Origin: Candidatus Magasanikiibacteriota bacterium
Lineage (GTDB): Bacteria > Patescibacteriota > Patescibacteriia > Magasanikbacterales > GWA2-37-8
NCBI GenBank assembly: GCA_016182085.1
Contig: JACOYB010000005.1
Location: forward strand, 1,013 to 65,012
Reading direction: 5' to 3'
Length of the DNA: 64,000 nucleotides
Part shown: positions 28,297 to 60,310 of the stretch, one piece after another
Numbering within the stretch: the first letter of the stretch is position 1
How the letters are laid out: each line of letters begins with the position of its first letter
Program-made: the position numbers and the translations under genes
Notes under the pieces: model-generated
Told to the model about the DNA's origin: nothing
Seen by the model: the letters and a program-made list of their open reading frames with translations, nothing else
The model's database searches: none

Positions 28297-28692
28297 TTAT
28301 TTTGCCTGCGGATGAGATTCTTTTGCAAAAAAGTGCTGCACTTTTTCTATAATCTCACCTACGGGATGATCTGATTTTACGATATAATCATCTGCTCCGA
28401 GCCTGAGACCTTTTTTAATGTCATCATCTTCGCCAAGCATAGTAAGAACTATCACGGGGATGGCTTTGGTACCCGGGAATTTTTTAAGTTCTTCTAAAAC
28501 CTCGAAGCCGTGCTTTTTAGGCAACACTAAATCCAGCAGCACCAGGTCTGGGTGTTTGGATTTCACCATTTCCAAACCCGATTCGCCGTCAAATGCCTGC
28601 AAAGCATCAAACCCGGCATCAAAAAGTTCGGTATAGAGCACTTTGGCAAGCACTTCGTCGTCTTCTACTATTACAATTTTAATTTTCTCCAT
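28297..28692 (-). CDS. Stand-alone response-regulator receiver
   Basis: The protein is 131 aa. The motif DLVLLDLVLPKKHG is present. Its stop abuts the dockerin gene start. Confidence 0.8.
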   Translation of the reverse strand: MEKIKIVIVEDDEVLAKVLYTELFDAGFDALQAFDGESGLEMVKSKHPDLVLLDLVLPKKHGFEVLEELKKFPGTKAIPVIVLTMLGEDDDIKKGLRLGADDYIVKSDHPVGEIIEKVQHFFAKESHPQAK

Positions 28693-28826
28693 ATGCGAAA
28701 TGAGTGAGGGAAATAATCAAATGTTTTTGATTATTTCTGAACGAATGAGTATATACCTTAGTATATGCGAAATGAGTGAATATAAAATTAAATGTATTTA
28801 ACTTTATACGAGCGAGTGAATGTATA
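28691..28826 (+). repeat. Dispersed repeat family, copy b (two tandem ~66-nt units)
   Basis: The unit GCGAAATGAGTGAG, hairpin, GAACGAATGAGTATATA occurs twice. The first unit abuts the response-regulator start codon. Confidence 0.7.
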
Positions 28827-28867
28827 ATTACTTATGCGCTATCTATTAATTCATTATACACCGCTCA

Positions 28868-29998
28868 TTATTTATCCTGCAAGTACACGGGAACAAATCC
28901 TTTTTCTCCTTTTTGCGCTTTTGCCACCAAGGGAATTTCTATATAAAAAGTAGAACCGCTTTCTGCATCTCCGCCCGCCGTAGTTTTTTTAACTAAATTA
29001 GGAGATTTAAACCAAATTTTGCCGCCAATGAGCCCGGCCGCTTGGGAAGCAATATATAGCCCCAGACCGCTGCCATCAGTCTTAACGGCAGCCGCATTTG
29101 ACGCGCGAAAAAATTTCTCAAAAATATGAACCTGCTCCTGTTTTGGTATTCCTATACCCGTGTCCCGAATCATAAAAAACGCGGCGTTGTTTTTCTTTTC
29201 TATGCCCACCTCTACCTTTCCTCCTTGAGGAGTATATTCAATGGCGTTTCTAATAATATCTTGCAAAATATAATCCAACGCGTTTCTGTCGGTAGTGGCG
29301 GCAAGTTTTTTGAGGTGGTTAGTAAATATAAGTTTTAAATCTTTTTTTTCAGAGAGTGTCTGAAGCCTGCTTATAAGTTCTTTTGTAAACTTTACCAGGT
29401 CTAAATCTTCCGGCGCTACCATTATGCGCCCCGACTCAATCCGCGATATATTCAACATGAGTTTTATCAGCGTATTAAGACGCGAAGCTGAGTAAATAAT
29501 ATCGCGAAGATATTTCTTTCCACTCTCCGTTAATTTTTCTTTTTCTAAAAAAAGTTCGGCTGTCCACCTAATCCCGGTCAAAGGGGTACGAAGCTGATGC
29601 GAGGCAAGAGAAACAAACTCGGTTTTTGAACGATCAAGCTCTTTTAAACGAGTAACGTCGTGGAGAATTATGATTCCCCCGATAGATCCTCTTTGCTCGT
29701 GCAGGGCGGGCGTAATGGATATCTCAAAAAAAAAGTTTGCCAAAGAAATTTCTTCTGTGCGGATGACCTTATCTTTTTTTATCGCCTCGCCAACTTTATT
29801 TTCCAAGTCCAGAGCGGGAAATAATTTGTAAAATTTTGAAAGGCCATACCCTTCCCGAGGCAGTCCGGTAAAACTCATGGCCGCCGGGTTTGCCAGAATA
29901 ACTTTTTTCTTTGCGTCAAATATAATTACCCCGTCTGTAAGGCTTGAAAGAATAGTGGTAATAACATCTTGCGGCAAGATCTTGGTCGTTTCCGCCAT
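28868..29998 (-). CDS. PAS sensor histidine kinase (cytoplasmic)
   Basis: A PAS domain, an H-box (HQLRTPLTGIRW) and a HATPase_c domain are present. The protein is 376 aa. Confidence 0.85.
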   Translation of the reverse strand: MAETTKILPQDVITTILSSLTDGVIIFDAKKKVILANPAAMSFTGLPREGYGLSKFYKLFPALDLENKVGEAIKKDKVIRTEEISLANFFFEISITPALHEQRGSIGGIIILHDVTRLKELDRSKTEFVSLASHQLRTPLTGIRWTAELFLEKEKLTESGKKYLRDIIYSASRLNTLIKLMLNISRIESGRIMVAPEDLDLVKFTKELISRLQTLSEKKDLKLIFTNHLKKLAATTDRNALDYILQDIIRNAIEYTPQGGKVEVGIEKKNNAAFFMIRDTGIGIPKQEQVHIFEKFFRASNAAAVKTDGSGLGLYIASQAAGLIGGKIWFKSPNLVKKTTAGGDAESGSTFYIEIPLVAKAQKGEKGFVPVYLQDK

Positions 29999-30039
29999 AC
30001 AGGACTATTTTAATTATCCGCTAACAAAGTTTCTTATTC

Positions 30040-30165
30040 ACTCATCTCTAGTAATTATAAGCGGAGCTTGAAATTACGTCGAGCTTCGGAATAAGAAAAT
30101 ACTAAGGTATTTTCTTATTCACTCATCTCTAGTAATTATAACAAACTTTTTTTAAAACAAAAATA
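30040..30165 (-). repeat. Dispersed repeat family, copy c (inverted orientation). It has two 30-nt direct repeats and a 14-bp perfect-stem hairpin.
   Basis: TTCTTATTCACTCATCTCTAGTAATTATAA occurs twice. It is the reverse complement of the GAGATGAGTGAATAA core. Between the copies lies GAATAAGAAAATAC-TAAG-GTATTTTCTTATTC. Confidence 0.6.
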
Positions 30166-30191
30166 CCCTACTATGAACTATATAATAAATT

Positions 30192-31199
30192 TTATTTTGT
30201 CGCTAGTATGCTGCGTTTATAGTTTTCTAAATTGTCTAGAGCAATACCGGTGCCTTTGGCCACACAAAGCAATGGCTCTTCGGCCACATAGGTAGCCACG
30301 CCCGTTGCTTGAGCGATAAGTTCGTTTAAATTTCGCAGCATGGCCGAACCGCCGGATAAAATTATGCCTTTGTCTATTACATCTGCCGAAAGTTCAGGCG
30401 GGGTTTTGTACAAAACTGCTTTTACCGCCTCAGTTAAATTACCCAACTCATGCTGCAAGGCTTCGGTCGTATCATCGGAACTTACCATAATAGTTTTTGG
30501 CAAACCGGTAATCATATCGCGGCCTTTTACTTCCATAGTCAGAGGTTTTTCCATATACATGGCCGAACCAACTTTAATTTTTATATCTTCGGCTGACCGC
30601 TCGCCGATCGCCAAATTATATTTATGGCGAACATATTCCATGATAGCTTGGTCAAATTTATTGCCGCCCACGCGAGCCGAACCCCAAGAAACTATTCCGC
30701 CCAGAGAAATCACGGCAATTTCGGCTGTGCCGCCGCCAATATCTATAATCATATGTCCCGAAGCCGCGCCAATCGGAATATCAGCGCCAATTGCGGCCAC
30801 CACCGGTTCTTTAATGATATATGCCGCGCGCGCGCCGGCAGCGATGGTGGCGTCAATTACAGCTCGGCGTTCGGTGGAAGTAATGCCAGCCGGCACGGCC
30901 ACCATAACTTCCGGACGAAACAAACGCACACCGCCTAAAGCTTTATTTATAAAATACCTAAGCATGGCTTCGGTGGTATGGTAGTTGGCAATCACGCCAT
31001 CTTTAAGCGGGCGTTCGGCCAAGATCGCGTCCGGAGCGCGCCCAATCATATCTTTAGCCTCAACTCCTACGGCGAGCACTTTGCCATCGGCTTTAGATAC
31101 GGCCACAACACTGGGTTCATTAATAACAATTCCTTTTTTTGGAACATATACAAGCACGTTAGTCGTACCCAGATCAATGCCGATTTTTTTGATAAACAT
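30192..31199 (-). CDS. mreB: Rod-shape determining actin homolog MreB
   Basis: The N-terminal GIDLGTTNVLVY and the actin fold match MreB. The protein is 335 aa. Confidence 0.9.
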   Translation of the reverse strand: MFIKKIGIDLGTTNVLVYVPKKGIVINEPSVVAVSKADGKVLAVGVEAKDMIGRAPDAILAERPLKDGVIANYHTTEAMLRYFINKALGGVRLFRPEVMVAVPAGITSTERRAVIDATIAAGARAAYIIKEPVVAAIGADIPIGAASGHMIIDIGGGTAEIAVISLGGIVSWGSARVGGNKFDQAIMEYVRHKYNLAIGERSAEDIKIKVGSAMYMEKPLTMEVKGRDMITGLPKTIMVSSDDTTEALQHELGNLTEAVKAVLYKTPPELSADVIDKGIILSGGSAMLRNLNELIAQATGVATYVAEEPLLCVAKGTGIALDNLENYKRSILATK

Positions 31200-31288
31200 A
31201 GTGAATGAGAGAAATAGACGAGCTTGCTCGGATATTTCCGAGTGAGCTGTGTTTATATGTGGCTTTAGCCCATATAAACATAATTGTA
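31200..31288 (+). repeat. Dispersed repeat family, copy d (abuts the mreB start)
   Basis: CATAGTGAATGAGAG, a hairpin, then CGAGTGAGCTGTGTTTATATGTGGCTTTAGCCCATATAA. Confidence 0.65.
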
Positions 31289-32722
31289 TTAATTAGCCAA
31301 GCCTACTTCTATACTACGATCAACTGTCAAATCCGTTTTATAATTATATTTTTGATCGCCGATATTTTCTTGAGCTTCACTTGGGCTTGCTGATACGATA
31401 TTTTTACCAAAATTAAGGTTGAGCGTCAATTTATCCGCGATTGTTCCTAATTGTTTTTGCACAAGCAGATTATACGAATTATTTTTTATTTGCCCAGCTA
31501 CTTGCGGCGCCACATAAAACTGCCAGGCGAGCTCACCGGTTTTGCCCGGTTCAATGGAAATAAATGCGCCAAACCACTGTCGGCCGTTTTCCATTCCTTG
31601 ATCTACAGCTCCGGGTTCGATTGATCTGTCTGTTTTCATACTGCCGGAAACCGAAATAAATTTACTGCCTTCAGGCAAGAAAACCCTGGCATACGTTCTG
31701 TATCTCGTTGTAAATTTCGTAAAGCTGCCATTGTTTTTATATTTCATTTTTACCGTGCCAACATATTTATCCGTGCCGCTTGGCGCAACCGAATACGACA
31801 ATTCTTTATCCATGACCTTATCGGTTTTAAGCGCGGCCATATTGGCATCCGCCCATAATATATAATCTTTTTTATCCTGTTTCATTTCTCCGCTCCAACC
31901 TCGGGCTACCAAAATTTTTTGTATTTCCGAATCCGTGGAATACGCCAAAATATGTTTCTCCAGCAACATGCGCTGGCTTAAAGCAAAATAACTGGACCAG
32001 TGTTTAAATAAATCGCCGCGGATGCGAGCTAAAAGCGCATGGCTTAAATCGGCTAAAATTTTCTTGCGCTCGTCAAAATGCAAACCATCTTCGGCAAAAC
32101 CAAACTCCACTTCATATTCCAATTTTTCCGTAAAGTTGTCCGCGTTAAATTCTTCGCCATTTACGGTAATCGACCCGCTGATGCGCAAAATTTCTTCAAG
32201 CAGAGTGGGTGTAATTCCAATCACGCCCGTAATTTCATCCGCCGAAACGCCGCGTTCTTTTTTAAACAAGTCCAGTGATTTCATGGAAGAGGCTGCAAAA
32301 TCCGGCGACCAGTTGCTGTCCCTAAAACCCCATCTTTTGACGAGCACATATTTTTGCAGCGGTTCGGGCGGCACAGACTCAAAATCTTGCGGCGCCTGGT
32401 TATCTAAAATTTCAGTTCCTTCCACTTTTAAAATATGGGGTATGCCTTTATCAACTCGCACCACGCTATAGGCGCCGATAAATCCCCCGCCCGGACGAAT
32501 TTCAGTATTGTTTAAAAACAACACCAAATAGGTCTGTGGTTTTTCAAAACCCAATACTTTCGGAACCAGGATATTTTCCGCCGGATCAGAAACAACCGTT
32601 TCGGCAACTTTTTTTATTACAGCCGATTGCAATCCGCCTTGGGAACGAGACCAGCGCCACAGCCCCAAAGCGCCGATAACAACTAGCGCAAAAAGTAAAA
32701 TAAAAATTATTTTTTTTATCAT
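31289..32722 (-). CDS. Membrane-anchored hypothetical protein (N-terminal TM, large extracytoplasmic domain)
   Basis: The protein is 477 aa with a single N-terminal TM. It lies next to the processive GT2 synthase. Confidence 0.4.
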   Translation of the reverse strand: MIKKIIFILLFALVVIGALGLWRWSRSQGGLQSAVIKKVAETVVSDPAENILVPKVLGFEKPQTYLVLFLNNTEIRPGGGFIGAYSVVRVDKGIPHILKVEGTEILDNQAPQDFESVPPEPLQKYVLVKRWGFRDSNWSPDFAASSMKSLDLFKKERGVSADEITGVIGITPTLLEEILRISGSITVNGEEFNADNFTEKLEYEVEFGFAEDGLHFDERKKILADLSHALLARIRGDLFKHWSSYFALSQRMLLEKHILAYSTDSEIQKILVARGWSGEMKQDKKDYILWADANMAALKTDKVMDKELSYSVAPSGTDKYVGTVKMKYKNNGSFTKFTTRYRTYARVFLPEGSKFISVSGSMKTDRSIEPGAVDQGMENGRQWFGAFISIEPGKTGELAWQFYVAPQVAGQIKNNSYNLLVQKQLGTIADKLTLNLNFGKNIVSASPSEAQENIGDQKYNYKTDLTVDRSIEVGLAN

Positions 32723-32745
32723 ATGTTTAGTCCATATAAACGAAA

Positions 32746-34230
32746 CTAACTTCTCTTTTTTACGGAAACGTTAAAACCAAGGTATTTGCCAAACATGAGA
32801 TGAGAAACCGCGTCCAGACAAGGCAGCGACGAAAAGAAAATAAGCGATATCGGCAAAAGAAACCATTGCAGAATCATAAATAAATATCCATGACGCGGGT
32901 GATTTTCCGGACGTGCCGGTAAAATCAACATGCTCATTACGGCTGAAACGAGCAGCCCGAGCATAGCCAGGGTCATCAGAATTTCTAAAATATTGGGGGC
33001 ATTAAAAAATAACGCGCTCTGCCGAACTTCGTTTCCCGCCACCCACAGAGGCAATCGGCCAATGAGGGTGATAAGAATTGCCACCACCGCCCAACTCCAC
33101 TTGCCTTCCCATTCATGAAACAGCACTGATATTTTTTTAAACCAGGGAATTTTTTTATTCTGGCGGAACTGCCATAATAAATACGGAATATGTTCCGTGC
33201 CCCAGGCCCAACGGCGCTGCTGCAAATATAAATTTTTCAAACTGCGCCACCACGAGTCGTCGCGCACCGTATCCATGGATACGGGGATATACATTGGCGT
33301 GACTTCATAATCTCCATTATACCGCAACCAGCATTGATAAAAAATACGCGAATCTTCGCTGACAATGTCCTTGCTATGCCCCCCGCAATCCATAATCGCT
33401 TTAAAACTCATGCTGTGCGAAGAAAATGTAACCAGGCTGTCTAACCTGGCCAAGCTAAACAACATCCAAAAACTGGTACCGAAGGCCATGATACGGATAA
33501 TGGCCGGCGACTCCCACAAATTATTATTATACAAGGTGAGCGGCTGGAACGAACTGTGATCTGGCCGCGGATGATTATTATACAAATACGCCAGATGCGC
33601 AAAGTATTCGCTATGCACAATCGTGTCAATATCAAAAACCGAAGTAATAATATCTATGTACTCCCAGCCGCGCTGGTCGGCATATTTCTTAAATTCCCAT
33701 TCGGCATAGTGAATATTGGAACCTTTCCCCGGAATTTCATCGGGCAAATTTTCCGGATGCGTATAAAAAATTATATCCGCGAATTTTCCCGAATAATTCT
33801 CAACAACTAATTTTTGTATGCCTTGCAAGTGTTCCGGTTTTCTAGCTTCGCCGGAAATTACCAGATAGGTTTTGCCGGCTGGAAAGCTGGATTTTAAAAA
33901 ACTATCCAATGTCGGCGCCACCACATCCCAACTTTCATTATATAGAGGCAGAAAAACGACATTCTTTCTTTTTTCCCAATCTGGAAATTCGGCTTTAAGT
34001 TTTTCAAACCAATTTATTTTTACGGCCTTGCGGAAACGCCTCCAAGACAAAAACAAATAAAAAGAAAAATATGATACGCGGATAACCCAATACACATCAA
34101 AGACCAAGATAAAATAAATCATCCATAACGGCTTGGCAAAGGATAAGATAATGGTCAAAAAAATCGTAAGCCAAATACTTAAGCCCGGTAACATTTCGTA
34201 CAGACGATACCTGTGATAATTCGAGATCAT
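32746..34230 (-). CDS. Processive GT2 glycosyltransferase (cellulose/chitin/hyaluronan-synthase-like) with flanking TM helices
   Basis: N- and C-terminal TM helices flank a GT2 core. The QxxRW motif (QQRRWAWG) and D,D,D-type motifs are present. Confidence 0.65.
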   Translation of the reverse strand: MISNYHRYRLYEMLPGLSIWLTIFLTIILSFAKPLWMIYFILVFDVYWVIRVSYFSFYLFLSWRRFRKAVKINWFEKLKAEFPDWEKRKNVVFLPLYNESWDVVAPTLDSFLKSSFPAGKTYLVISGEARKPEHLQGIQKLVVENYSGKFADIIFYTHPENLPDEIPGKGSNIHYAEWEFKKYADQRGWEYIDIITSVFDIDTIVHSEYFAHLAYLYNNHPRPDHSSFQPLTLYNNNLWESPAIIRIMAFGTSFWMLFSLARLDSLVTFSSHSMSFKAIMDCGGHSKDIVSEDSRIFYQCWLRYNGDYEVTPMYIPVSMDTVRDDSWWRSLKNLYLQQRRWAWGTEHIPYLLWQFRQNKKIPWFKKISVLFHEWEGKWSWAVVAILITLIGRLPLWVAGNEVRQSALFFNAPNILEILMTLAMLGLLVSAVMSMLILPARPENHPRHGYLFMILQWFLLPISLIFFSSLPCLDAVSHLMFGKYLGFNVSVKKRS

Positions 34231-34679
34231 ACCTGGTTATTTTTTCCTTGTATATGAGCCTCCGCGCTATATTCGGGCATCACATACTGTCCGGCCTTAG
34301 CCTCTTTGGCCTTAGCTGAAGCCGCCCGCCGGTCAAAATTCTTTTCTAATTTTATAACCGGAATACGCAAGCCATAAGCTAAGGTGTTAGCCAGAGTTAC
34401 GGCCAGCCTAGTACCCGTAAACCTTCCCACACCCATCACCACGCCCACGCATGTAATATCTTTTACAGATAGGTTAAGTTCGGATAAAAACTTGTCCAAA
34501 CAAACTAGCAAATCATCACTCTGTTTCGTTTTAAAAGCCTTTGATCTAATATTGTGTCCGGAAGTTTTTTGTTTTGACGAAGCCGCGGTTCTTTTCAAAA
34601 CACCTTGAACAAATTTATTATCCATTTCAGCGTAGAACACACCCCTATCGTCTTCGGTATTGTCAATAACAAGCAGCAT
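34227..34679 (-). CDS. tsaB: TsaB (YeaZ)-like N-terminal domain protein (t6A biosynthesis partner), short form
   Basis: ITCVGVVMGVGRFTGTRLAVTLANTLAYGLRIPV matches the TsaB GPGSFTGLRIG signature. The protein is only 150 aa. Confidence 0.5.
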   Translation of the reverse strand: MLLVIDNTEDDRGVFYAEMDNKFVQGVLKRTAASSKQKTSGHNIRSKAFKTKQSDDLLVCLDKFLSELNLSVKDITCVGVVMGVGRFTGTRLAVTLANTLAYGLRIPVIKLEKNFDRRAASAKAKEAKAGQYVMPEYSAEAHIQGKNNQV

Positions 34680-34685
34680 AACCGA

Positions 34686-35285
34686 TTACATTTTATTTAT
34701 TTCGTCAACCACCTTTACATACTTGCCTTCAAAGATGCTATATAAGAATTTATCGCCAATTTCACGACGATCATTTAATTCTTTTTCACTCATGATTGTA
34801 TAGCGGAGCGACTTGCCCAGCTTTTTCTCAAAATCAGCCACCAGCTTTGAAACCAAAACCGGTTTTATTTCTCCCACGAGTAAAATATCGGTTTCCGCGT
34901 TTTTAGCATCCGTAAAGCAACCGGTAAACAACAGTAATTTCAGCTTGCCGGCTTTGTTCTTTAAGAGTTCAATCAGCTCACGCTCGTACAGTATTTGCGC
35001 CTTAAACAGCAGGGCTTTAAGTTCCGCATACAGCAAACAAGCGGTGTCTAATTTATAATATTTTGAACGGCCGGTACCGGATTGTTCGGCAGAGTCGGTA
35101 ATTTCGGCAACCGTAGGCATAATAATACCTACTTTTTCCAAATTACTGAGTTCGCGCCTGACCGCGTTAAGCTGGGATTCAGTCAGTCTTGCCAGTTCGC
35201 GCACATAAAATGGCCGATCCGGAGAGTGGAAAAAAATATGCAAAAGTTTTATCCTAGTCTTTGAACCAAAAAGTTGTTCAAGCAT
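34686..35285 (-). CDS. Putative winged-helix transcriptional regulator
   Basis: The N-terminal FYVRELARLTESQLNAVRRELSNLEKVGII is wHTH-like. Confidence 0.35.
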   Translation of the reverse strand: MLEQLFGSKTRIKLLHIFFHSPDRPFYVRELARLTESQLNAVRRELSNLEKVGIIMPTVAEITDSAEQSGTGRSKYYKLDTACLLYAELKALLFKAQILYERELIELLKNKAGKLKLLLFTGCFTDAKNAETDILLVGEIKPVLVSKLVADFEKKLGKSLRYTIMSEKELNDRREIGDKFLYSIFEGKYVKVVDEINKM

Positions 35286-35384
35286 ATCGCTAAGGTTGCA
35301 CTAAATAAGAAAATCGTAATAAATAGCTTTACTATTTTACGCCGTTTATAGTATAATTATTAAAGAAGAAAAAGTCAAAATACC

Positions 35385-38683: not shown

Positions 38684-38699
38684 AATTATTGCTTTTAAC

Positions 38700-38900
38700 A
38701 AAAAATCTGTGTTCTCCACAGACCTCTAGCACAAATCGACCGAATCTAGCCTTACTCAGCACGAGGCTGATCCGCCTTGGGCGGAAGCTATTATTTGTAC
38801 CTCGGCAGGCCTACCCGCAAAACGGGCAAATTAGATCCTTTCGGACACCTACTGTCTATGGTTAGACCAAGTATATATATACTGATAAAAAAAGTCAAGG
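38700..38900 (-). promoter_or_regulatory. Possible L10 (rplJ) leader / autoregulatory 5'UTR
   Basis: A long structured, GC-richer untranslated region lies between the upstream gene and rplJ. It is assigned by position only. Confidence 0.25.
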
Positions 38901-38903: not shown

Positions 38904-39308
38904 CTATTTCTTATGTCTCCCGATACCGGGGTTGGTATCCTCAAGTCCCACTTCCCAAGTTTTAGGTACGCCAACACTAGCAAAATCTTTGATCTTTCGC
39001 ATGTCGTTAATCCCCAATTTTGCGAGCTCCTGTATGAGCGCGGCTTTGTTAACTTTTTCATCACCTGAAACAACCTTAATACATATCTCTCTTATTCTTA
39101 ACCTTTCATAGCCCGGATCTTGTTTGGCGAGAGCCAGCATTTCCGCATCCTTAACCACATCAAAGCTATGCTTTAGACTGCTTCTGGCCGCAGCCCGATC
39201 TTCTTCACTTTTACCAAAAACAGCTGTAATAGCTAATTCAATTTTCACCCTTTGTCTTCCAATTTCTCTTGATCCTACTCCCATTCCTCCTTCAGATGAT
39301 TTTGCCAT
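38904..39308 (-). CDS. Hypothetical protein (134 aa) occupying the position where rplK-rplA is normally found
   Basis: It does not resemble L11 or L1. Its start codon abuts a copy of the dispersed repeat. Confidence 0.35.
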   Translation of the reverse strand: MAKSSEGGMGVGSREIGRQRVKIELAITAVFGKSEEDRAAARSSLKHSFDVVKDAEMLALAKQDPGYERLRIREICIKVVSGDEKVNKAALIQELAKLGINDMRKIKDFASVGVPKTWEVGLEDTNPGIGRHKK

Positions 39309-39400
39309 ATACGAAATGAGTGAGGTAAAAGTTAAATGTGTTTAACTTTTACCGAACGAATGAGTATATATGCGGCTTTAGCCCCTATACATTAAAATTC
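39301..39400 (+). repeat. Dispersed repeat family, copy e (abuts the start of the 38904..39308 gene)
   Basis: ATACGAAATGAGTGAG, a perfect hairpin GTAAAAGTTAAA/TTTAACTTTTAC, then CGAACGAATGAGTATATATGCGGCTTTAGCCCCTATAC. Confidence 0.7.
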
Positions 39401-40709: not shown

Positions 40710-41324
40710 TTAACCTACTAATAATCTAAATAAGCCATTTATCAGCGGTGCAATAAGCTCAAACAAAAAGAAAACAAAAAATAATAAAATAATAAACCCA
40801 TATCGGTCTAGAAAATTCTTAATTTCATTCGCCGAGTTTGGCAATACGGCATACAAAACTTTTGATCCATCCAGCGGCGGGATCGGCACTAAATTAAATA
40901 TCATTAACATAATATTGGCATACACAATAATTGCTAAAATCTCAGCCAGACCCAGCGGCAGAGGCAAAAAGCGTATAAGCAAGGCAAATGCTACAGCCAA
41001 AAGAAGGTTGGCGGCTGGTCCGGCCAGCGCCACCATAACCGGCCCCCATTTCTGATTTTTTAAATTATACGGGTTATACGGCACGGGTTTGGCATACGCA
41101 AATAAAAATCTACCGCCCGTGAGAATTGAAAGCATTATTGGCATTAAAATCGTACCCCAGGGGTCTATGTGGGCCATGGGGTTTACAGTCAGTCTTCCGG
41201 CATGACGGGCGGTAGGGTCGCCAAGCATATCTGCCACCCAGCCATGAGCATATTCATGGATAATCGCCGAAGGCACAATGACCAAAAAATAAAAGATAAA
41301 GTCCATACGTAACAGAGTTGACAA
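40710..41324 (-). CDS. Site-2 protease family (M50) zinc metalloprotease
   Basis: HEYAHGWVA (HExxH) lies within a TM segment. The protein is polytopic and 204 aa. Confidence 0.7.
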   Translation of the reverse strand: MSTLLRMDFIFYFLVIVPSAIIHEYAHGWVADMLGDPTARHAGRLTVNPMAHIDPWGTILMPIMLSILTGGRFLFAYAKPVPYNPYNLKNQKWGPVMVALAGPAANLLLAVAFALLIRFLPLPLGLAEILAIIVYANIMLMIFNLVPIPPLDGSKVLYAVLPNSANEIKNFLDRYGFIILLFFVFFLFELIAPLINGLFRLLVG

Positions 41325-41394
41325 AACTTAAGTAGTAGCGTATACTGTAACCATTGTATTTAAGTATACTTAAAAAATCTTAAAGTTTCAACAT

Positions 41395-52207: not shown

Positions 52208-52213
52208 AAACCA

Positions 52214-53062: not shown

Positions 53063-53066
53063 ATAA

Positions 53067-54077
53067 TTAAGCTTTTTCCGTATATTGTTTTTTAAAATAC
53101 TCTCTATGCTCTCCGCTCTTAAGCGGCTGCCACCAATTTGGATTATTTTTATACCATTTGATGGTTTCTCTTAAACCCGCCTTAAAGTCTTTTTCCGGAT
53201 GCCAGCCAAAATCTTTTTTTAATTTGCTCCAATCTATGGAATACCGCCTATCATGTCCCGGTCTATCACGCACCGGCTCAATCATATCCCCGCCAAACCC
53301 CATTTCGGATAGTATCATGTTGGTTAACTCTATATTTTCTAACTCCTGACCAGAACCAATATTATATACCTCTCCCGGCGCAGCCTTATGCAATAGCACA
53401 TCAACAGCTTTGCAATGGTCGCTGGTATGAATCCACTCTCTCACATTTTTTCCATCACCATACAAGGGCACTTTTTTACCTTCAATTAGATTCGTGATGA
53501 AAAATGGTATTAATTTTTCCGGATACTGATTGGTACCATAAAAATTACAGCTGTGGGTGACTACCACCGGCGTTTTATAGGTAACAAAATAAGCCCGGCA
53601 TAAATGATCGCCGCCGGCTTTGGCTGCCGAATAGGGGCTATTGGGAGAAAACGGCGACTCTTCCGTAAAACTGCCGGCTTCAATACTGCCGTATACTTCA
53701 TCCGTAGAAATCTGCACCATTTTAGTTAAATTGAAATTTTTGGTCGCTTCCAGCAAATTAAAGGTGCCCAAAATATCGGTTCGCAAAAACGCGTCCGGGT
53801 CCATAATAGATCTGTCTACATGGGTTTCGGCTGCGTAGTTAACTATTGCCTCAATATTATTTTCCCTAATCACATCCTCAACCGCAGCCTTATCACAGAT
53901 ATCTCCGCGAACAAATGTATACCGAGGATTATTTTCAACTTCGCGTAAATTTTCCAAATTACCGGCATAGGTCAGCTTATCAAAATTTACCACCTCGTAA
54001 TCCGGGTATGTTGCTAAAATATATTTTATGAAATGGGAGCCCATAAACCCGGCCCCGCCGCAAACAAGTAACTTCAT
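53067..54077 (-). CDS. rmlB: dTDP-glucose 4,6-dehydratase
   Basis: LLVCGGAGFMGSH, YxxxK and the TDEVYG pattern are present. The protein is 336 aa. Confidence 0.8.
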   Translation of the reverse strand: MKLLVCGGAGFMGSHFIKYILATYPDYEVVNFDKLTYAGNLENLREVENNPRYTFVRGDICDKAAVEDVIRENNIEAIVNYAAETHVDRSIMDPDAFLRTDILGTFNLLEATKNFNLTKMVQISTDEVYGSIEAGSFTEESPFSPNSPYSAAKAGGDHLCRAYFVTYKTPVVVTHSCNFYGTNQYPEKLIPFFITNLIEGKKVPLYGDGKNVREWIHTSDHCKAVDVLLHKAAPGEVYNIGSGQELENIELTNMILSEMGFGGDMIEPVRDRPGHDRRYSIDWSKLKKDFGWHPEKDFKAGLRETIKWYKNNPNWWQPLKSGEHREYFKKQYTEKA

Positions 54078-54088
54078 AAGCGTATCAT

Positions 54089-55204
54089 TTAAATTTTACC
54101 GTACTTACTTATATTGGCAACAATGCCCATGCTGGCAAGCCCGATGAGCAGAGCTGATCCGCCATGGCTAATAAACGGCAGGGGTACGCCCGTAAGGGGC
54201 AATAACCCGATAATTGTGCCAATATTTAAGAAAGATTGCCAGATAAACCATATCATAATCCCCGCGGCAAGTAAACGGCCAAAGGGGTCTGGGGCGCCTT
54301 TGGCAATCTTGAAGCCTCGGAGCGCCAAAAAACTGATTAAAAAAACCAAAATTGAGGTAACTAAAAAACCCATCTCTTCGGCAATAATGGCAAATATTGA
54401 ATCGGCTTGCGCTTCGGGCAAATATTGAAATTTTTGTCTGGAGTGTCCAAGTCCCAACCCCCATACCCCGCCAGAGCCAACCGCGAGATATGCCTGATTT
54501 ATTTGATAACCAATACCTTGCGGATCAAGTTCGGGATGCAAAAAGGTCGTAAGCCGCTGCACGCGGTATGGCGCTACCAAGAGCAATATGGCAAATGATA
54601 CCGCTGTCAGCAAGCCAAGAATCACCAAATACACCCGAGGAATACCCGCCAAATACAGCATGGCAAAAATTATAACTACCAAAATTGACAGAGTTCCCAC
54701 ATCGGGCTGGGCGGCGACAAGCAAAACTACCGGCAATAGCATGGCAAAAATTGGCATCAAGCCATTTTTCCAATCACGCAAATCCCTGCCTTCAGACAAA
54801 AGTTTAGCAAGTATTATTATCGTGGTGAGCTTTACAAATTCTGAAGGCTGAAAACTGAGCCCAAACAACTGTACCCAGCTTCGCGAACCATTGATGGTGA
54901 GTCCGATGCCCGGTATAAAAACCAAACAGAGAATTACAAGCGATAATAGATATATAATACCGCCAAATTTTTGCAGCAGCTCATATTTGGTATTGCCAAA
55001 AACTAAAAATAAAAAGAGTCCGGGGAGCAAGCCAAACAATAATTGTTTTTTAATAAAAAAATACGTATCGCCGAATTTGGCATAGCCTATAGGGGCGCTC
55101 GCCGAAGCAAGCATTACCAGCCCAAAAACTACCAGGATAGCAAAAAATAATAAAAACAATCTATCAGCCGATTTTTTTGATCTTTCCATAAACTTATTTT
55201 TCAA
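54089..55204 (-). CDS. SEDS-family peptidoglycan polymerase (RodA/FtsW)
   Basis: The protein has 10 TM helices and is 371 aa. SEDS motifs (GSxxWI...QPSEFxK) are present. Confidence 0.8.
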   Translation of the reverse strand: MKNKFMERSKKSADRLFLLFFAILVVFGLVMLASASAPIGYAKFGDTYFFIKKQLLFGLLPGLFLFLVFGNTKYELLQKFGGIIYLLSLVILCLVFIPGIGLTINGSRSWVQLFGLSFQPSEFVKLTTIIILAKLLSEGRDLRDWKNGLMPIFAMLLPVVLLVAAQPDVGTLSILVVIIFAMLYLAGIPRVYLVILGLLTAVSFAILLLVAPYRVQRLTTFLHPELDPQGIGYQINQAYLAVGSGGVWGLGLGHSRQKFQYLPEAQADSIFAIIAEEMGFLVTSILVFLISFLALRGFKIAKGAPDPFGRLLAAGIMIWFIWQSFLNIGTIIGLLPLTGVPLPFISHGGSALLIGLASMGIVANISKYGKI

Positions 55205-55207
55205 AGA

Positions 55208-55564
55208 CTAGGAATTCAATCTCACAAGCAATGCGATGCCAATGGCTAAAAACAAGTGAAAGAATAAAATCCAAGCATTCAATAGTCTTGCCAAAAACTT
55301 ATCGTAAAAGTAAACTGCGAGCGAACACAGACAATTAAATAAAATAACCAGCACGCCAATAAGGGGCGGGAAATAAATCTGCCACCACTCTCCGACTGAA
55401 TCAACTCCAAAAATAATATTATAATGTAAAAAAATAACAGGCGTATCCGGACTAACATTCATAACTAAAATTACCCACAAAAAAATTTGTATTAAAATTG
55501 ACCCTGCCAAGGGTATGGAAATCCACGGATCACGAAGGTAGAGTTTGGGCGAATAAAAAAGCAT
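55208..55564 (-). CDS. Small polytopic membrane protein, hypothetical
   Basis: The protein is 118 aa with four TM helices. Confidence 0.35.
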   Translation of the reverse strand: MLFYSPKLYLRDPWISIPLAGSILIQIFLWVILVMNVSPDTPVIFLHYNIIFGVDSVGEWWQIYFPPLIGVLVILFNCLCSLAVYFYDKFLARLLNAWILFFHLFLAIGIALLVRLNS

Positions 55565-55652
55565 GCTGTATTTAGGCTAAATTGAAGAAAAAACCCTGAA
55601 CTTATCTATATTTAGAGCAAATCCACTGGTATAATAACAAATTTTAACCCCC

Positions 55653-55688
55653 TTGACAATAATGGGATTTTGTATTATATTTATCAGG
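55653..55688 (+). promoter_or_regulatory. Candidate sigma70 promoter for rpmA
   Basis: TTGACA is followed by a 17-nt spacer and TATATT, about 40 nt upstream of the rpmA ATG. Confidence 0.4.
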
Positions 55689-55720
55689 TAAAACTTCATT
55701 TCTCTAACTTATAAACCCGT

Positions 55721-55996
55721 ATGTCTCATAAAAAAGCAGGTGGTTCTACCCGGCTCGGACGTGATTCTACCTCTCAACGGCTTGGCGTTAAATTGCATGA
55801 TGGACAGGCTGTGCAAAAAGGCATGATAATCATACGTCAACGCGGTACTAAATTTCACCCAGGAAAAAACGTAAAACGAGCTGGCGATGACACAATTTTT
55901 GCCATGGCTGACGGCAAAGTTAAATTTTCCCAGCATAAACGACGCCGCTTTGATGGCAGTATGAAAATGGCAAAATTCGTAAACGTGGTAGCCTAA
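55721..55996 (+). CDS. rpmA: Ribosomal protein L27
   Basis: [24 protein letters not shown] is the L27 N-terminus. There is no rplU upstream. Confidence 0.9.
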
Positions 55997-56004
55997 TATT
56001 ATAA

Positions 56005-56045
56005 CCTATAAAACAAAAACCCTCCTAAGTTAGGAGGGTTTTTGT
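56005..56045. terminator. Bidirectional hairpin terminator between rpmA (+) and the epimerase gene (-)
   Basis: AAACCCTCCTAAGTTAGGAGGGTTT is flanked by T-runs on both strands. Confidence 0.65.
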
Positions 56046-56046
56046 T

Positions 56047-56961
56047 TTATAGGCCCCACTGTTTTTTTAGTTCAGCAACACCATCTTTTAACTGTATGGT
56101 CGGCTCCCAACCAAGAAGTTTTTTTGCTTTGGAATAATCGGCTTCGGTTTTTTGCATCTCTCCCGGCAGAGCTGGAACATATTCCACCGGACCGCCTATC
56201 AATTCTGCGAGCTCATTTACTGATACGGAATGGCCATTGCCAACATTTAACACTTCGCCGTGGCCTACCGTATCTTTAGTCATAGCCAACATATTGGCAT
56301 GCACCACATCATCCACGTGAGTATAGTCCCTTCTCATTTCCCCATCGCCTCTAATTGTCAGCGGTTTTCCTTCTTTTCGCAATTTTAGAAACCTGCCGAT
56401 AACAAGCGCGTAGGCTCCTTCCGGATCCAAATACGGACCGTAGACATTATAATAACACAAACTAACCGTCTCTACGCCATAGAGTTCCCAAAATAAACGG
56501 CAATACTCTTCGCCAATAAACTTATGCAACGCATATGGACTGAGCGGCTTCTTTACCACGCCATCTTCTACAAAAGGAATGGTGGGTTGATTACCATAGG
56601 CTGAAGACGAAGTTGCAAACACTACTCTTTTTATTTTATGGTTTCGAGCAGCCAGAAGCACATTTAACGTACCGTTGACGTTTGTGTCATGAGTTTCCAG
56701 CGGATTTTCTACGGAAAATAAAACCCTGGGCAGGGCTGCTAAATGAAATATGCCATCAAAACCCTGGGCGCAGACTTTGTCCAGATCTTCCATCTTTCGT
56801 ATATCTCCTTCAAAATATGTTGCGCCTTCCTGCATGCGATCTTCTTTTTTCCCCGCCGCATAATTATCTACAACAGTTACGATATGGCCTAGAGCCAAAA
56901 GTTTTTTTACGATATTTGTGCCAATAAAACCAGCTCCGCCGGTAACAAGATATTTTGACAT
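56047..56961 (-). CDS. NAD-dependent sugar epimerase/dehydratase (GalE-like)
   Basis: [12 protein letters not shown] and YxxxK are present. The MSKYLVTGG start was chosen. Confidence 0.7.
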   Translation of the reverse strand: MSKYLVTGGAGFIGTNIVKKLLALGHIVTVVDNYAAGKKEDRMQEGATYFEGDIRKMEDLDKVCAQGFDGIFHLAALPRVLFSVENPLETHDTNVNGTLNVLLAARNHKIKRVVFATSSSAYGNQPTIPFVEDGVVKKPLSPYALHKFIGEEYCRLFWELYGVETVSLCYYNVYGPYLDPEGAYALVIGRFLKLRKEGKPLTIRGDGEMRRDYTHVDDVVHANMLAMTKDTVGHGEVLNVGNGHSVSVNELAELIGGPVEYVPALPGEMQKTEADYSKAKKLLGWEPTIQLKDGVAELKKQWGL

Positions 56962-56965
56962 ATAT

Positions 56966-58369
56966 TTAAATACTTCCTTTAAAAAATGGGGAACCAACCG
57001 CGATTATACTATAGCCCTTTTTTGCCAGGTCCACAAACTGATCCTGAACCATGCGGCGACCATCCATGATTAAATACGGTGCCGGACAAATCTTCGCTAC
57101 TTTTTCCCCGACCAACCGGAATTGAGGCCAGTCTGTTAAAATTAAACATGCTTGACTCGACTCGAGCGCGTCTTCTTCGCTTTCGTGATAACTTATTCTT
57201 TCATACCTGGAATCGGCTGGCGGCAAAAATGCTTTAAACATGGGCGCAGCTACCGGATCATAAATTTTAATCTGAGCCACCCCGTCATCAATAAGATGGT
57301 TAACAATATCAAAGGCCGGAGAATTTCTCACATCGTTAGTGTTTTGTTTAAAAGCCACACCGAGCACGGCCACGGTTTTTCCTGCCCAAGAAAACCCGGC
57401 TTCTTTTTGCGCGCGGCTATAGAAATGATCGCGCTGAAACCTGTTTTCTTCTAGTGTTAAACGAACTTGATGAGCTGTGCCTCCAACTTCTTCTATCTGG
57501 TGAGCTAGTGAAGCCGCGTCTTTAATAAAACAACTGCCGCCCGCGTACACGCTGTCATAAAATCCCCAGCCGCCTATCCTCTCATCGCTCATCAGTATTT
57601 TACGAACATTTTCAAATTTAATATTATCAAATATTTCACAGACCCTGCCCACCACGCTAAACGTGTTAGCCAGCCTGGAAAACAGTAAGTAGTTTGCCAA
57701 AAGTTTGCTAGCTGCGGCCTCGTATGGATTGACTTCAATATATTTGACGCCCGTAGAATTATAAAAACGAGCGTATACCATGCGCATGACTTTAAAGTCA
57801 TCCTCTTTTTCCGCTCCGATAACAACTCTATCCGGACGAGCCGATCCTTCTACCGCCTTACCTTCTACCAAAAATTCCGGATTAGAAACCACGCCGAAAT
57901 TTATGACTCCATGTGATTTCATAATTGTTTCAGTTTCATTCATCATACGTATTGGCACGGTACTCTTATTTACAATGACTACGTATTTCGTTTGCCCACC
58001 ACCATTTCTCTTTGCCAAATTTTCGGCCAGAGTTTGCGCGGCCTGATAATAATAAGAGAGATCAGAACTTCCTTCGGCACCCATCTTTTCCGGAGTCGGC
58101 AAACACATAAAAATCGCGTCTGCTTCGTCAAGCGCGCCAATAACCTTGGCGTAATCATGAGTAAATTCAATTCTATTTTTATTTTTTACCAAAAGATCCC
58201 CTAGGCTGGGTTCAAACAAACAGGATTCAACTGTCTGCGCATTTGCCGAACCAAGCATCTCAATTTTTTTCTGATCAACATCGTATAATAAAACATCATG
58301 GCCGGCTTCCGCCATCACTCCTCCCGAACAAGCACCCACAAAACCAGCGCCAATATATATTAATTTCAT
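56966..58369 (-). CDS. ugd: UDP-glucose 6-dehydrogenase
   Basis: The N-terminal IGAGFVGACSG, the catalytic Cys region (GGSCFIKD) and the three-domain UDPGDH layout are present. Confidence 0.8.
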   Translation of the reverse strand: MKLIYIGAGFVGACSGGVMAEAGHDVLLYDVDQKKIEMLGSANAQTVESCLFEPSLGDLLVKNKNRIEFTHDYAKVIGALDEADAIFMCLPTPEKMGAEGSSDLSYYYQAAQTLAENLAKRNGGGQTKYVVIVNKSTVPIRMMNETETIMKSHGVINFGVVSNPEFLVEGKAVEGSARPDRVVIGAEKEDDFKVMRMVYARFYNSTGVKYIEVNPYEAAASKLLANYLLFSRLANTFSVVGRVCEIFDNIKFENVRKILMSDERIGGWGFYDSVYAGGSCFIKDAASLAHQIEEVGGTAHQVRLTLEENRFQRDHFYSRAQKEAGFSWAGKTVAVLGVAFKQNTNDVRNSPAFDIVNHLIDDGVAQIKIYDPVAAPMFKAFLPPADSRYERISYHESEEDALESSQACLILTDWPQFRLVGEKVAKICPAPYLIMDGRRMVQDQFVDLAKKGYSIIAVGSPFFKGSI

Positions 58370-58382
58370 AATTCATCAATAA

Positions 58383-59321
58383 CTAAATTTTTGATTTAAA
58401 ATACTCTATGGTTTTTAACAATCCCGTTTCCAAATTTATTTTCGGCTCCCAACCGAGCGCTTGTTTTGCCATACGTATATCCGGACAGCGTCGAGTTGGA
58501 TCATCAGTTGGCAGTTCTTTATATACCACTCTGCTGCTTGAGCCGGTTAACTTTAAAATTAACTCCGCAATTTCTTTAATAGAAACCTCATTTGGATTTC
58601 CTAAATTTACGGGGCCGGTAAAATCGTTCGACGTTGCCATAGTTTGCATCATACCGTCAACCAGATCATCTACATAACAAAAACTTCTGGTCTGGCTGCC
58701 ATCCCCCTGGATGGTAATATCCTGGTTAGTTAAAGCTTGGACAATAAAATTTGATATTACCCGACCGTCGTCTTTAGACATGTGCGTGCCATATGTATTA
58801 AAAATTCTGACTACTTTTATATTTAATCCATGCGAACGGCGGTATTCAAAAAATAACGCTTCCGCGCAACGCTTCCCTTCATCGTAACAAGCTCTGGGCC
58901 CAATACTGCTTACATTGCCGCGATACTGTTCCGTTTGCGGATGTTCCAGCGGTTCACCGTAAATTTCAGAAGTAGAGGCTTGCAATACTTTTGCTTTAAT
59001 GGCCTTGGCAAAACCGAGCGTGTTAATTACACCCAGCGTATTAACTTTAATTGTTCTAATGGCATTTTTTTGATAATGAATGGGCGATGCCGGACAGGCA
59101 AGATTATATATCTCATCAACCGGTTCGTTAATAGTAATTGGATCAATAATATCGTGTTCAACAAAAATAAAAAGTGGATTGTCAAACAAACGCTCAATAT
59201 TATCCTTAGAACCCGTCAAAAAATTATCCAGACAAATTACTTTATTTCCCTCATTCAAAAGACGCTGGCATAAATGCGAGCCGATAAACCCTGCCCCGCC
59301 GGTAACTAAGATTCTTTTCAT
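58383..59321 (-). CDS. uxs: UDP-glucuronate decarboxylase (UDP-xylose synthase)
   Basis: [34 protein letters not shown] matches the UXS N-terminal signature. The protein is 312 aa and lies immediately downstream of ugd. Confidence 0.7.
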
Positions 59322-59326
59322 ACCGG

Positions 59327-60184
59327 TTATTTTAGATAGTTGATTAGTAGCGCAATCGCCATTCTCACTTTTATTCCCATCCAGATTATTAGATTTAAAA
59401 TAATATTGTGTTGGTTATAAAAATGTTTTCTATAATACAGCCACATGGCTTCATAAAAATTGATAAGGGATTTTACCCAGCGTTTCCCGCTACTTTGGCC
59501 GCCAAAATGAATTATTTTTGCTTCACTAACATACACTGTTTTCCACCCTTTATCAAGTACCCGTTTGCAAAAATCGAGATCTTCCCCGTACATAAAGAAT
59601 GTCTCATCAAACCCGCCTATTTGCTCATACACAGCCTTGCGAAACATCATCGCCGCTCCTGATAGGGCCTGTGCCGGACCGGTAACTTCCGGATCAGCTA
59701 AATACTGTTTATAGTCGGTTACAAATTTACTATTTTTAAAAATTTTAGTCAGCCCAAATAAGTGAAAAAATGAGTTTGTCGGGTTGGGCAGCATGCGGCG
59801 GCAGACGTGTTGAAAAGTTAAATCCCTATTTAACAGCCTTGGGCCAACCATCATCACGTCCGCATGGGTATCTAAGTAATTCACTAATTTTTCTATGGCA
59901 TGATCCAGCACAACTACATCCGTATTTAAAAACATCAAATAATCGCCTTTGGCGATTTTCAACCCCTGATTATTGGCTTTGCCAAAACCGCGATTATCCG
60001 AATTTTCAATCAAAATAACTTGCGGAAATTCTTTTTTAATCATTTCCACGCTGCCATCTTGAGAGTTATTATCTACCACGATCACTTCAAATTCTATATT
60101 CCTAGTTTCTTTATAAATAGAAACAAGCGCATCCCTGGTTATATCCCGTGTTTTCCAATTCACCAAAATAACGGAGAGTTTCAT
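59327..60184 (-). CDS. GT2 glycosyltransferase
   Basis: [21 protein letters not shown] and GFGKANNQG are present. The start codon is directly preceded by a dispersed-repeat copy. Confidence 0.7.
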
Positions 60185-60310
60185 ATACGAAATGAGTGAG
60201 AGAAATAGCCGGTGAGATATTTATAACTCGCAAGCGGTTATAAATATTGAACCCGGATATTTCCGAGTGAATGAGTATATATGGGCTTTAGCCCATATAA
60301 TCGAAATGAA
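60181..60310 (+). repeat. Dispersed repeat family, copy f (abuts the GT2 start)
   Basis: CATATACGAAATGAGTGAG, a hairpin (ATATTTATAAC..GTTATAAATAT), then CGAGTGAATGAGTATATATGGGCTTTAGCCCATATAATCG. Confidence 0.7.

Follow-up and report, generated by a model that had tools for sequence, protein, structure and literature searches.

The intergenic repeats that come closest to the element considered here, a modular, non-coding sequence dispersed through a 64,000 nt stretch of a Candidatus Magasanikbacteria genome (contig JACOYB010000005.1, positions 1,013 to 65,012; hereafter the window), belong to three families. In the enterobacteria, repetitive extragenic palindromic (REP) sequences make up bacterial interspersed mosaic elements (BIMEs): intergenic palindromic units with linkers, present in tens to hundreds of copies, often within operons and mostly 3' of genes, which are co-transcribed, act on mRNA stability and translation, bear a GTAG head and are associated with RAYTs. 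The Correia elements of Neisseria (CREE or NEMIS) resemble miniature inverted-repeat transposable elements (MITEs), having 26 bp terminal inverted repeats (TIRs), a TA duplication, an IHF site and TATA-rich ends that make -10 boxes; they are co-transcribed, form processable hairpins and show insertion polymorphism between strains. The BOX elements of Streptococcus pneumoniae, of the form boxA-boxB(n)-boxC, have a predicted stable RNA structure and often lie near the 5' ends of genes. We know of no mosaic repeat or MITE among those compared that sits with single-base precision at gene starts. A motif close to the start codon is found in the promoters of leaderless genes in Deinococcus, Actinobacteria and archaea, which passages of two reports describe as having a -10 hexamer TANNNT 6-7 nt upstream of the ATG (PMC4007540, PMC3898074).

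The unit of the element described here is around 90 nt long (range 65-100) and, read on the coding strand, consists of a first hairpin (hp1), a direct repeat (DR1), a second hairpin (hp2) and a second direct repeat (DR2), followed after three nucleotides by an ATG. Like the BIMEs, it has palindromic units with conserved linkers in mosaic arrays, here of one to four units, but its two hairpin types alternate in one orientation, whereas the Y and Z units of BIMEs alternate in orientation; it is also A/T-rich, has no GTAG head and keeps a fixed register to the start codon, which BIMEs do not. With the Correia elements it shares an abundant, MITE-like, intergenic nature, TATA ends resembling -10 boxes and insertion polymorphism, but its inverse-complementary flanks are only 5 nt of A/T, no clear target-site duplication (TSD) was found, it contains direct repeats internally and it joins the ATG precisely. 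BOX elements are likewise modular, variable in module number, predicted to be structured as RNA and found near gene 5' ends; however, their sequence is unrelated and their distance to the start codon is variable. As far as those passages describe leaderless promoters, the likeness lies in a conserved motif at a fixed distance from a strongly preferred AUG, and the difference in DR2 having no TANNNT and in the element possessing hairpins and a second direct repeat. In common with MITEs, the repeat is short, non-coding, multi-copy (six units in the window) and polymorphic in its insertion between related genomes. It works most like the BIME, BOX and Correia repeats that affect neighbouring genes, yet is a member of no named family, because the defining features of BIMEs (alternating orientation, GTAG head) and of Correia elements (long TIRs, TA duplication) fail.

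The repeat is an evolutionarily mobile mosaic restricted to one lineage of ultra-small groundwater bacteria, Candidatus Magasanikbacteria of the Patescibacteria or candidate phyla radiation (CPR); the great majority of its surviving copies have the sense orientation and are fused to the native AUG at single-base precision in genomes poor in Shine-Dalgarno (SD) motifs. This is documented by its anatomy, covariation, phyletic restriction, register and turnover, and by the scarcity of SD motifs. From these features we infer transcription through the element, a role at the RNA level and any processing; the reading we favour, with a probability of roughly one half, is that the gene and its cassette are transcribed together, the cassette serving as a standard leader without an SD motif or as an intercistronic module.

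Anatomy of the repeat and its copies in the window

The same order of modules is found in all copies in the window when they are read on the minus (coding) strand. The first hairpin is typically TATATGGGC-TAAA-GCCCATATA, with a short A/T form in some copies; DR1 is ACTCATTCGYTCG; hp2 is a variable, nearly perfect palindrome of about 28 nt with a 12 bp stem; and DR2 is (C)CTCACTCATTTCG. DR1 and DR2 are conserved, G-poor direct repeats of the form ACTCATT(T)CG, and the three bases between DR2 and the ATG are N-W-T. A core 13-mer, CGAAATGAGTGAG, was found on the plus strand at 9879, 28696, 28768 (with one mismatch), 39312 and 60188; these four exact and one inexact matches compare with an expectation of 1.24 at up to two mismatches, and none of 100 shuffled sequences reached five. 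The motif GGGCTAAAGCC is present three times, on the minus strand only, and all the family motifs lie on one strand.

A covariance model of the repeat (R1), built from related genomes without the window, gives significant matches to six units of the window; these occupy five loci on the minus strand and bear out the dispersed family proposed in an earlier note made from the letters of the window alone. As that note had observed, four of the units end at true ATGs: those of a response regulator (28297-28692), mreB (30192-31199, in a shifted register), a 134 aa orphan gene (38904-39308) and a family 2 glycosyltransferase (GT2; 59327-60184). The identities of these genes are backed by Pfam, and that of MreB also by a separate analysis. 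The note's statement that no SD sequence intervenes also held, there being no GGAGG-type motif between element and ATG in the window copies.

Copy E (39309-39390; R1 match 39306-39371, 82.6 bits) is the archetype, with hp1 at 39366-39390, DR1 at 39353-39365, hp2 at 39325-39352, DR2 at 39312-39324 and then TAT, leading into the ATG of the orphan gene at 39306-39308. The response regulator gene, which encodes a receiver domain only, is preceded by a tandem doublet. Its downstream unit, copy B2 (28693-28767; R1 match 28690-28756, 89 bits), has a short hp1 at 28750-28767 (CATATAC-TAAG-GTATATA), DR1 at 28738-28750, hp2 at 28710-28737, DR2 at 28696-28709 and CAT before the ATG at 28690-28692; in the upstream unit, copy B1 (28768-28827; R1 match 28762-28827, 61.8 bits), a DR1-like sequence at 28809-28822, hp2 at 28781-28808 and DR2 at 28768-28780 are followed by the hp1 of B2 rather than by an ATG. 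Copy F (60185-60313; R1 match 60182-60282, 67.6 bits) occupies the entire spacer between an upstream GT2 gene and the ATG of the second at 60182-60184, and comprises a relic of a further direct repeat (DR0) at 60302-60313, hp1 at 60277-60301, DR1 at 60264-60276, a long nested hp2 at 60202-60263, DR2 at 60188-60201 and TAT; the same long nested hp2 subfamily was found at three loci of other genomes (L045, L056 and L003; labels of this form denote loci fetched from other genomes, whereas L10, L11, L12, L18 and L31 are ribosomal proteins).

Two copies depart from this pattern. Copy D (31200-31278; R1 match 31191-31258, 46 bits) is degenerate, with hp1 at 31252-31278, a DR1-like sequence at 31239-31251, a hairpin region at 31212-31242 and a truncated DR2, CTCTCATTCACT, at 31200-31211; it fills the whole DUF4012-mreB spacer and abuts the mreB ATG at 31197-31199, in a register 6 nt off the consensus. 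The ATGTTTAT repeat seen at mreB can be put down to the usual left arm, TTTAT, with three further nucleotides. Copy A (9873-9946; R1 match 9873-9938, 67.1 bits) is an orphan unit about 190 nt upstream of an HsdM gene, within an island bounded by inverted repeats; its short hp1 (9935-9946), DR1 (9920-9932), hp2 (9893-9919) and DR2 (9879-9892) are followed by ATTATA, without an ATG.

The inverted variant that had been reported at 30040-30165 is related to the family only weakly (R1 score of 17.9 bits on the plus strand, E = 0.16). It consists of two 31 nt direct repeats, TTATAATTACTAGAGATGAGTGAATAAGAAA, on the minus strand at 30111-30141 and 30030-30060, which flank a 14 bp hairpin upstream of a histidine kinase gene; on the coding strand of that gene, each repeat has a TATAAT box and then a DR-like core in reverse complement, and the region contains a promoter-like sequence, TCGACG-17-TATAAT, matching the consensus at 10 of 12 positions. 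We accept it as a degenerate inverted relative because an unambiguous antisense copy upstream of the L10 gene in L244 has the same layout, with TATAAT followed by a reversed DR2.

Distribution of the family

The window is A/T-rich (35-47% GC), has a negative GC skew throughout and carries nearly all its genes on the minus strand. Its source is a CPR bacterium, since the 134 aa protein is identical to 'hypothetical protein HYT15_02460 [Candidatus Magasanikbacteria bacterium]' and, among the best 120 MreB homologues (84-93% identity), those records bearing names are Magasanikbacteria or Patescibacteria. The 134 aa gene might itself form a cassette; its protein is an orphan with itself as sole homologue.

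A strict pattern, ACTCATTC-N25-55-CTCACTCATTTCG, scanned over 185,579 species-representative genomes, was found at 57 loci in 26 assemblies, the titles of which are Magasanikbacteria or Patescibacteria, with some third-party annotation (TPA) bins titled 'Gammaproteobacteria' and one 'Udaeobacter'. The proteins of the latter (DATION01) and of one TPA bin (CAZXML01) are 84-87% identical to their Magasanikbacteria or window orthologues, and the labels of these two bins are therefore read as mislabels. Across the window and the strict-pattern loci, 462 kb in total, R1 identifies 82 copies, whereas it finds none in 0.5 Mb of viral contigs and none in 79 rRNA-containing loci (around 0.73 Mb, fetched by a shared 16S signature) except L104, which has two. 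Phage copies had been considered as evidence of an expression signal; the 59 viral matches to a 15-base pattern of DR2 plus ATG are all attributable to chance, and none is matched by R1. Nothing in Rfam 15 reached the gathering score over the window, or E <= 1 over 28600-31400, and Rfam applied to 19 loci with non-ATG copies revealed no adjacent RNA gene, so an association with tRNA, rRNA or other non-coding RNA genes was rejected. A literature search matched the repeat motifs to unrelated primers only, and returned no paper joining CPR, an intergenic repeat and the start codon.

Register to start codons

The 9-mer CTCATTTCG has an ATG at exactly +3, opening a reading frame of at least 50 codons, in 50 of its 71 occurrences. 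Similarly, 62 of the 82 R1 matches end in ATG at the same position, 59 of these opening a reading frame of at least 40 codons, and not one of the 82 has GTG or TTG there. When the other 20 were sorted by eye, six proved to be internal units of arrays, two have an ATG 9 or 18 nt further on, one is copy D, and around 11 are orphan or 3'-type copies. Copies are overwhelmingly sense-oriented, antisense and orphan copies also occurring. The ATG at the register position is the canonical N-terminus in well-known families (L11, S14, L31, SSB, RRF, DnaN and MreB), and the linked proteins, which further include L18, SecE, TrmD, EngA, FtsW, RNR, glycosyltransferases and membrane proteins, have unrelated functions. 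Where the upstream gene runs in the same direction, the element often takes up the whole spacer after the upstream stop codon, and would therefore be intercistronic.

Turnover between related genomes

Orthologous sites may be filled in one genome and empty in another. An element precedes frr in L020 and L241 and is absent there from the window, L239 and L240; the same is true of rplK (present in L031, absent from L057), ftsW (present in L045, absent from the window) and tdk, which has four units in L029 and none in L008, where a canonical terminator, a TGnTATAAT promoter and a 41 nt leader are found. The mreB site is likewise filled or empty among orthologues. When nine copies of the syntenic region pyrH-L10-L12...DUF4012-mreB-...-frr were compared, the element was found before mreB, the 134 aa gene and the response regulator gene in the window, before frr in L241, before DUF4012 in L238 (as a partial copy) and before the L10 gene, in antisense, in L244, with none in L239, L240, L243 or L245. 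The DUF4012-mreB spacer is only 2-15 nt long in six relatives, contains copy D in the window, and is occupied by unrelated sequence in L242 and L244; in L242 this is a GC-richer palindrome of the TGTCATYCYG type. Such palindromes, TGTCATYCYG...CGGGAATGACA, constitute a second, unrelated dispersed repeat, which lies in the window at 14109-14144 (minus strand) and in L242 at 430-520, as well as in L057, L052, L239 and L244.

Tandem arrays of two to four units, always in the same orientation, are found in L007, L027, L029 and L036 and as the doublet B1/B2 in the window. The same subfamily can be found in several genomes at genes that are not orthologous; conversely, the GT2 genes of the window and L045, which are orthologues, differ in subfamily. 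At orthologous copies whose adjacent proteins are around 72-78% identical (L030/L037 and L005/L007), DR1 and DR2 are identical and hp2 has changed by compensatory pairs. Gains are a more parsimonious explanation of the distribution than many independent losses. Given the shifting positions, the variable number of tandem units and the orphan and antisense copies, the turnover of the family is that of a mobile mosaic repeat. The check for target-site duplications found no clear TSD between filled and empty frr and mreB sites, and no long TIR was seen.

Hairpins and covariation

Conserved flanks around a variable hairpin had been likened to a REP or MITE architecture, and the accompanying proposal to look for covariation in the hairpin gave a positive result. 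Among a subset of 23 copies that align without gaps, compensatory changes are seen at 10 of the 12 hp2 pairs and 95% of cells are paired; none of 500 shuffles reaches this, and sliding the partner columns of the alignment gives nothing comparable. RNAalifold run on a MAFFT alignment had shown no structure, the hairpin arms being misaligned, a problem solved by this subset and explicit counting of pairs. Of the 81 copies examined, most have the first hairpin immediately next to DR1; its mean folding energy is -7.5 kcal/mol compared to -2.9 kcal/mol for shuffled sequence, and its inner stem varies in a paired manner (GGGC/GCCC, AAAC/GTTT, CAGCTAT/ATAGCTG and GGGG/CCCC). In the predicted RNA fold of copy E (z = -4.3), both hairpins are present and the two direct repeats are unpaired. 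An excess of G.U pairs on the sense strand was sought as a mark of selection at the RNA level, and there is none in hp2: among 868 Watson-Crick pairs, its mismatches comprise nine G.U and 19 A.C.

The conserved flanks DR1 and DR2 are direct rather than inverted repeats. The only inverse-complementary ends are five A/T bases: the 5 nt before DR1 and positions +2 to +6 after DR2, the ATG included, covary and are 95.5% paired, one pair being A-U in 28 copies and U-A in 27. These flanks look like short TIRs as well. A long-range helix ('P0') that would hide the AUG was rejected as thermodynamically too weak, consisting of only 5-6 A-U or G.U pairs closing around 60 nt; a better explanation of the covariation is that the hexamer after DR2 is homologous to the left arm of hp1, or that the ends are TIR-like. 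In the arrays of L027, L029 and L036, that hexamer is the left arm of the next hp1, while in the gene-less copies of L040 and L023 the flanks are complementary without such an arm and the complementarity continues into large flanking palindromes.

Start codon context and promoters

Start sites were characterised using 267 ATG-initiated reading frames of at least 150 aa from the window and its relatives (L002-L058). An SD-like 4-mer lies at -20 to -4 in 31 of them (12%), against 16 (6%) in a control window; T is found at -1 in 82%, and G is depleted from -15 to -5. Part of the Parcubacteria is reported to be without the anti-SD motif (PMC9297842). The only 16S gene on an element-bearing contig (L104, found via the 5' signature typical of the lineage) has a canonical GGATCACCTCCTTTCT tail. 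DR2 is similar to an SD site in being a conserved 13 nt segment at about -16 to -4 before the AUG, but it is rich in pyrimidines and lacks complementarity to 16S rRNA: with the L104 gene, RNAduplex yields -12.8 kcal/mol, compared with a mean of -13.95 for shuffles, and DR2, UCACUCAUUUC, resembles the 16S tail, UCACCUCCUUUC, in the sense orientation instead of pairing with it. The element is therefore no alternative SD. Several 16S genes of the shared-signature set have altered 3' tails that lack CCTCC, such as GGATCACCTCATTTAG, GGAATACTCATTTTTAG and GGAAGATACCTCAT; none of the twelve loci concerned carries the repeat. The lineage-wide T(-1) and SD-poor start context, with the anti-SD tail kept in the linked 16S, is a subject that merits its own study.

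In the closest relative, L242, the histidine kinase and response regulator genes have -10 boxes ending 6-7 nt before the ATG (1540-1572 and 3290-3316), in the form TGGTATAAT, 7 nt and then ATG, which suggests that leaderless transcripts exist in the lineage. Boxes resembling a -10 are mildly enriched at gene starts with ends at -6/-7, and the genome-wide signal of leaderless promoters is weak. The positions from -12 to -7 are CTCATT or TCATTT in DR2, and so contain no TANNNT.

Canonical TTGACA/TATAAT promoters precede tRNA genes and many protein-coding genes. A common promoter architecture, TTTTTGTTTTAnAAAA...TTTGnTATAAT, is present three times on the minus strand, at 17072-17107, 20511-20546 and 30137-30172, and shows that the housekeeping type is conventional. 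Many copies of the repeat have a strong canonical sigma-70 promoter just 5' of hp1, as in L025 (TTGACA-17-TATAAT), L029 (TGaTATACT), L038, L006, L050, L049, L039 and copy B1 of the window; to judge by these promoters, the 5' end of a transcript spanning the whole element would fall at hp1 or close to it. A hexamer of the TANNNT type, TA(T/A)ACT, also spans the junction of hp1 and DR1 in nearly all gene-linked copies, with no consistent -35 sequence (2-4 of 6 matches to TTGACA) and no TGn extension in the copies examined.

Possible roles of the cassette

If the repeat serves as a leader or intercistronic module, as we favour, its transcription would begin at a canonical promoter shortly before hp1, or it would be transcribed as part of an intercistronic spacer. 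The first hairpin may cap or end the upstream RNA, and the second would be a stable stem 5' of the downstream cistron, with DR2 keeping positions -16 to -1 unstructured, as 13-16 nt of C, U and A ending in U(-1) before the AUG. The two identical single-stranded direct repeats, with one invariant G each, could be sites for one putative sequence-specific endonuclease or RNA-binding protein; were DR2 cut behind its G, a leader of 3 nt would remain, which would account for both the rigid spacing and the exclusive use of AUG. Several points weigh against this reading. The absence of a G.U excess in hp2 is unlike the usual outcome of selection on a sense RNA hairpin, and fits a palindrome that acts as DNA or was recently copied equally well. 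The TA(T/A)ACT hexamer makes an internal promoter possible, the non-conserved positions among close relatives show that no single copy is required, and a role as a landing pad alone leaves the invariant 3 nt spacing unexplained. A bolder proposal, which we regard as rather unlikely, is that (A)CUCAUU(U)CG is a lineage-specific start-site signal that replaces the SD interaction and travels on a mobile cassette, either as an endonuclease site for trimming to a 3 nt leader or as a binding motif, similar in sense to the 16S 3' tail, for the 30S platform or for a dedicated protein. Were this true, the cassette could dock at any start codon, splitting or rewiring operons in a reduced genome.

Were the junction hexamer a -10 box, made up of the end of hp1 and the ACT of DR1, the cassette would be a portable promoter and leader, with hp1 as spacer and terminator or insulator and an mRNA that starts near the CG of DR1, has hp2 first and then DR2 as its leader. 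We consider this doubtful. In its favour, the hexamer is kept while DR1 varies (TATACT, TAAACT, TATTCT, CATACT and TAATGT), a gene-less 'TAAATA' subtype has TTTACT at this point, and L051 (TTGAAG-17-TAAACT) uses the junction box; copies D and F take up entire spacers, with no space for another promoter; the tdk array stands in place of a canonical terminator and promoter; and antisense ends give perfect TATAAT boxes (30054-30082 in the window, and in L244). However, the -35 position is usually (T/A)TTATA, with 3-4 of 6 matches and no TG extension; the first T and A of the hexamer are explained by the hp1 stem, and its last T by the DR motif, which is equally conserved in DR2 without a preceding TA; several copies have better canonical promoters upstream of hp1, and covariation within hp1 suggests that it is used as a hairpin. 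The earlier suggestion of a MITE-like element supplying promoter and leader stands as regards DNA that is gained, lost and tied to SD-less starts, and is doubtful as regards the supply of a promoter. It is improbable that DR2 is itself a dedicated promoter core, or a processing site, giving leaderless mRNAs or mRNAs with 3 nt leaders. The distance to the ATG would then be fixed by selection of the transcription start or cleavage site, in keeping with the invariant CG-N3-ATG spacing, the restriction to ATG in all 62 copies, the leaderless-type promoters of L242, the mild enrichment at -6/-7, and the first base of hp2 standing at the same distance behind DR1; this is countered by the absence of a TANNNT from DR2, the weak leaderless signal genome-wide and the lack of a known alternative sigma factor or RNase.

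A selfish mosaic repeat of MITE or BIME type would need no function at all, its position at start codons being where insertion or recombination survives, with a target in the A/T-rich WTATG start context, similar to the left arm of hp1, in genomes with spacers of a few bases. We find this possible, if unlikely. It draws most strength from the differing positions in the nine syntenic genomes and from palindromes that are nearly perfectly Watson-Crick paired with no G.U bias, and further from the filled and empty orthologous sites, the sharing of subfamilies at non-orthologous genes and their difference between GT2 orthologues, the variable tandem number, the orphan and antisense copies, the copies that lie within large terminator-like palindromes (L040 and L023), the covarying TIR-like flanks and the recurrence of the hexamer after DR2 as the left arm of the next hp1 in arrays. 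What counts most heavily against it is the extreme orientation bias and single-nucleotide register, with all ATGs at the register position true N-termini, together with the conservation of the direct repeats between orthologous copies while hp2 changed by compensation; moreover, there is no clear TSD, the sole TIR candidates are the 5 nt flanks, and no transposase is known for the repeat, whole genomes not having been scanned for one. The remaining suggestions of the earlier note, the operator or 5' untranslated region (UTR) of a regulon under one regulator and a family of small structured RNAs, are very improbable. Two conserved direct repeats around 45 nt apart, and a copy preceding a response regulator gene, would suit an operator, but the downstream genes are functionally unrelated, the sites differ between close relatives and the palindrome is variable in sequence; free-standing RNAs are unlikely because 62 of the 82 units run straight into a reading frame, and the units have no terminators of their own and match no Rfam family.

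The CPR or Patescibacteria are uncultured, and almost nothing is known of how transcription and translation start in them; here an abundant, easily recognised signal is bound to start codons in an SD-poor lineage, on a mobile repeat whose surviving copies sit at gene starts with single-base precision. It provides an annotation handle, marking true start codons and unit boundaries in Magasanikbacteria metagenome-assembled genomes, and a testable entry point to SD-independent initiation and mRNA processing in CPR. If the cassette were shown to work in cis, it would be a natural design for an 'insulated 5' UTR'.

Other features of the window

The low-GC island in which copy A lies is around 8.9 kb long, is bracketed by an 84 nt inverted repeat of 99% identity (1010-1093 and 9997-10080) and encodes a type I restriction-modification system, including HsdM (7994-9679) and a 971 aa reading frame (1692-4607). 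It adjoins a gene for a large serine recombinase (10207-11694) that overlaps tRNA-Trp, and related 85 nt repeats are present at three places (927-1013, 10077-10159 and 11551-11637); the whole looks like an island that has integrated or can invert. A ribosomal protein L10 leader at 38691-38879 (minus strand), between the 134 aa gene and rplJ, scores 40 bits against an Rfam gathering score of 44 (E = 2.6e-5) and is conserved in L244; relative to related genomes, pyrH and this leader are separated in the window by an insertion made up of the element and the 134 aa gene. Immediately before tRNA-Thr(tgt), at 12290-12420 (minus strand), lies a second, incomplete copy of the tRNA-Thr 5' half that contains inserted sequence, and a TGGTAGTATAAT promoter is found between the two. 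Finally, a near-consensus promoter, TTGACA-17-TATACT, at 41318-41348 (plus strand) is followed by around 650 nt without a convincing gene as far as tRNA-Pro (to 42010), a stretch in which Rfam gives sub-threshold noise only and which is a candidate unannotated RNA.

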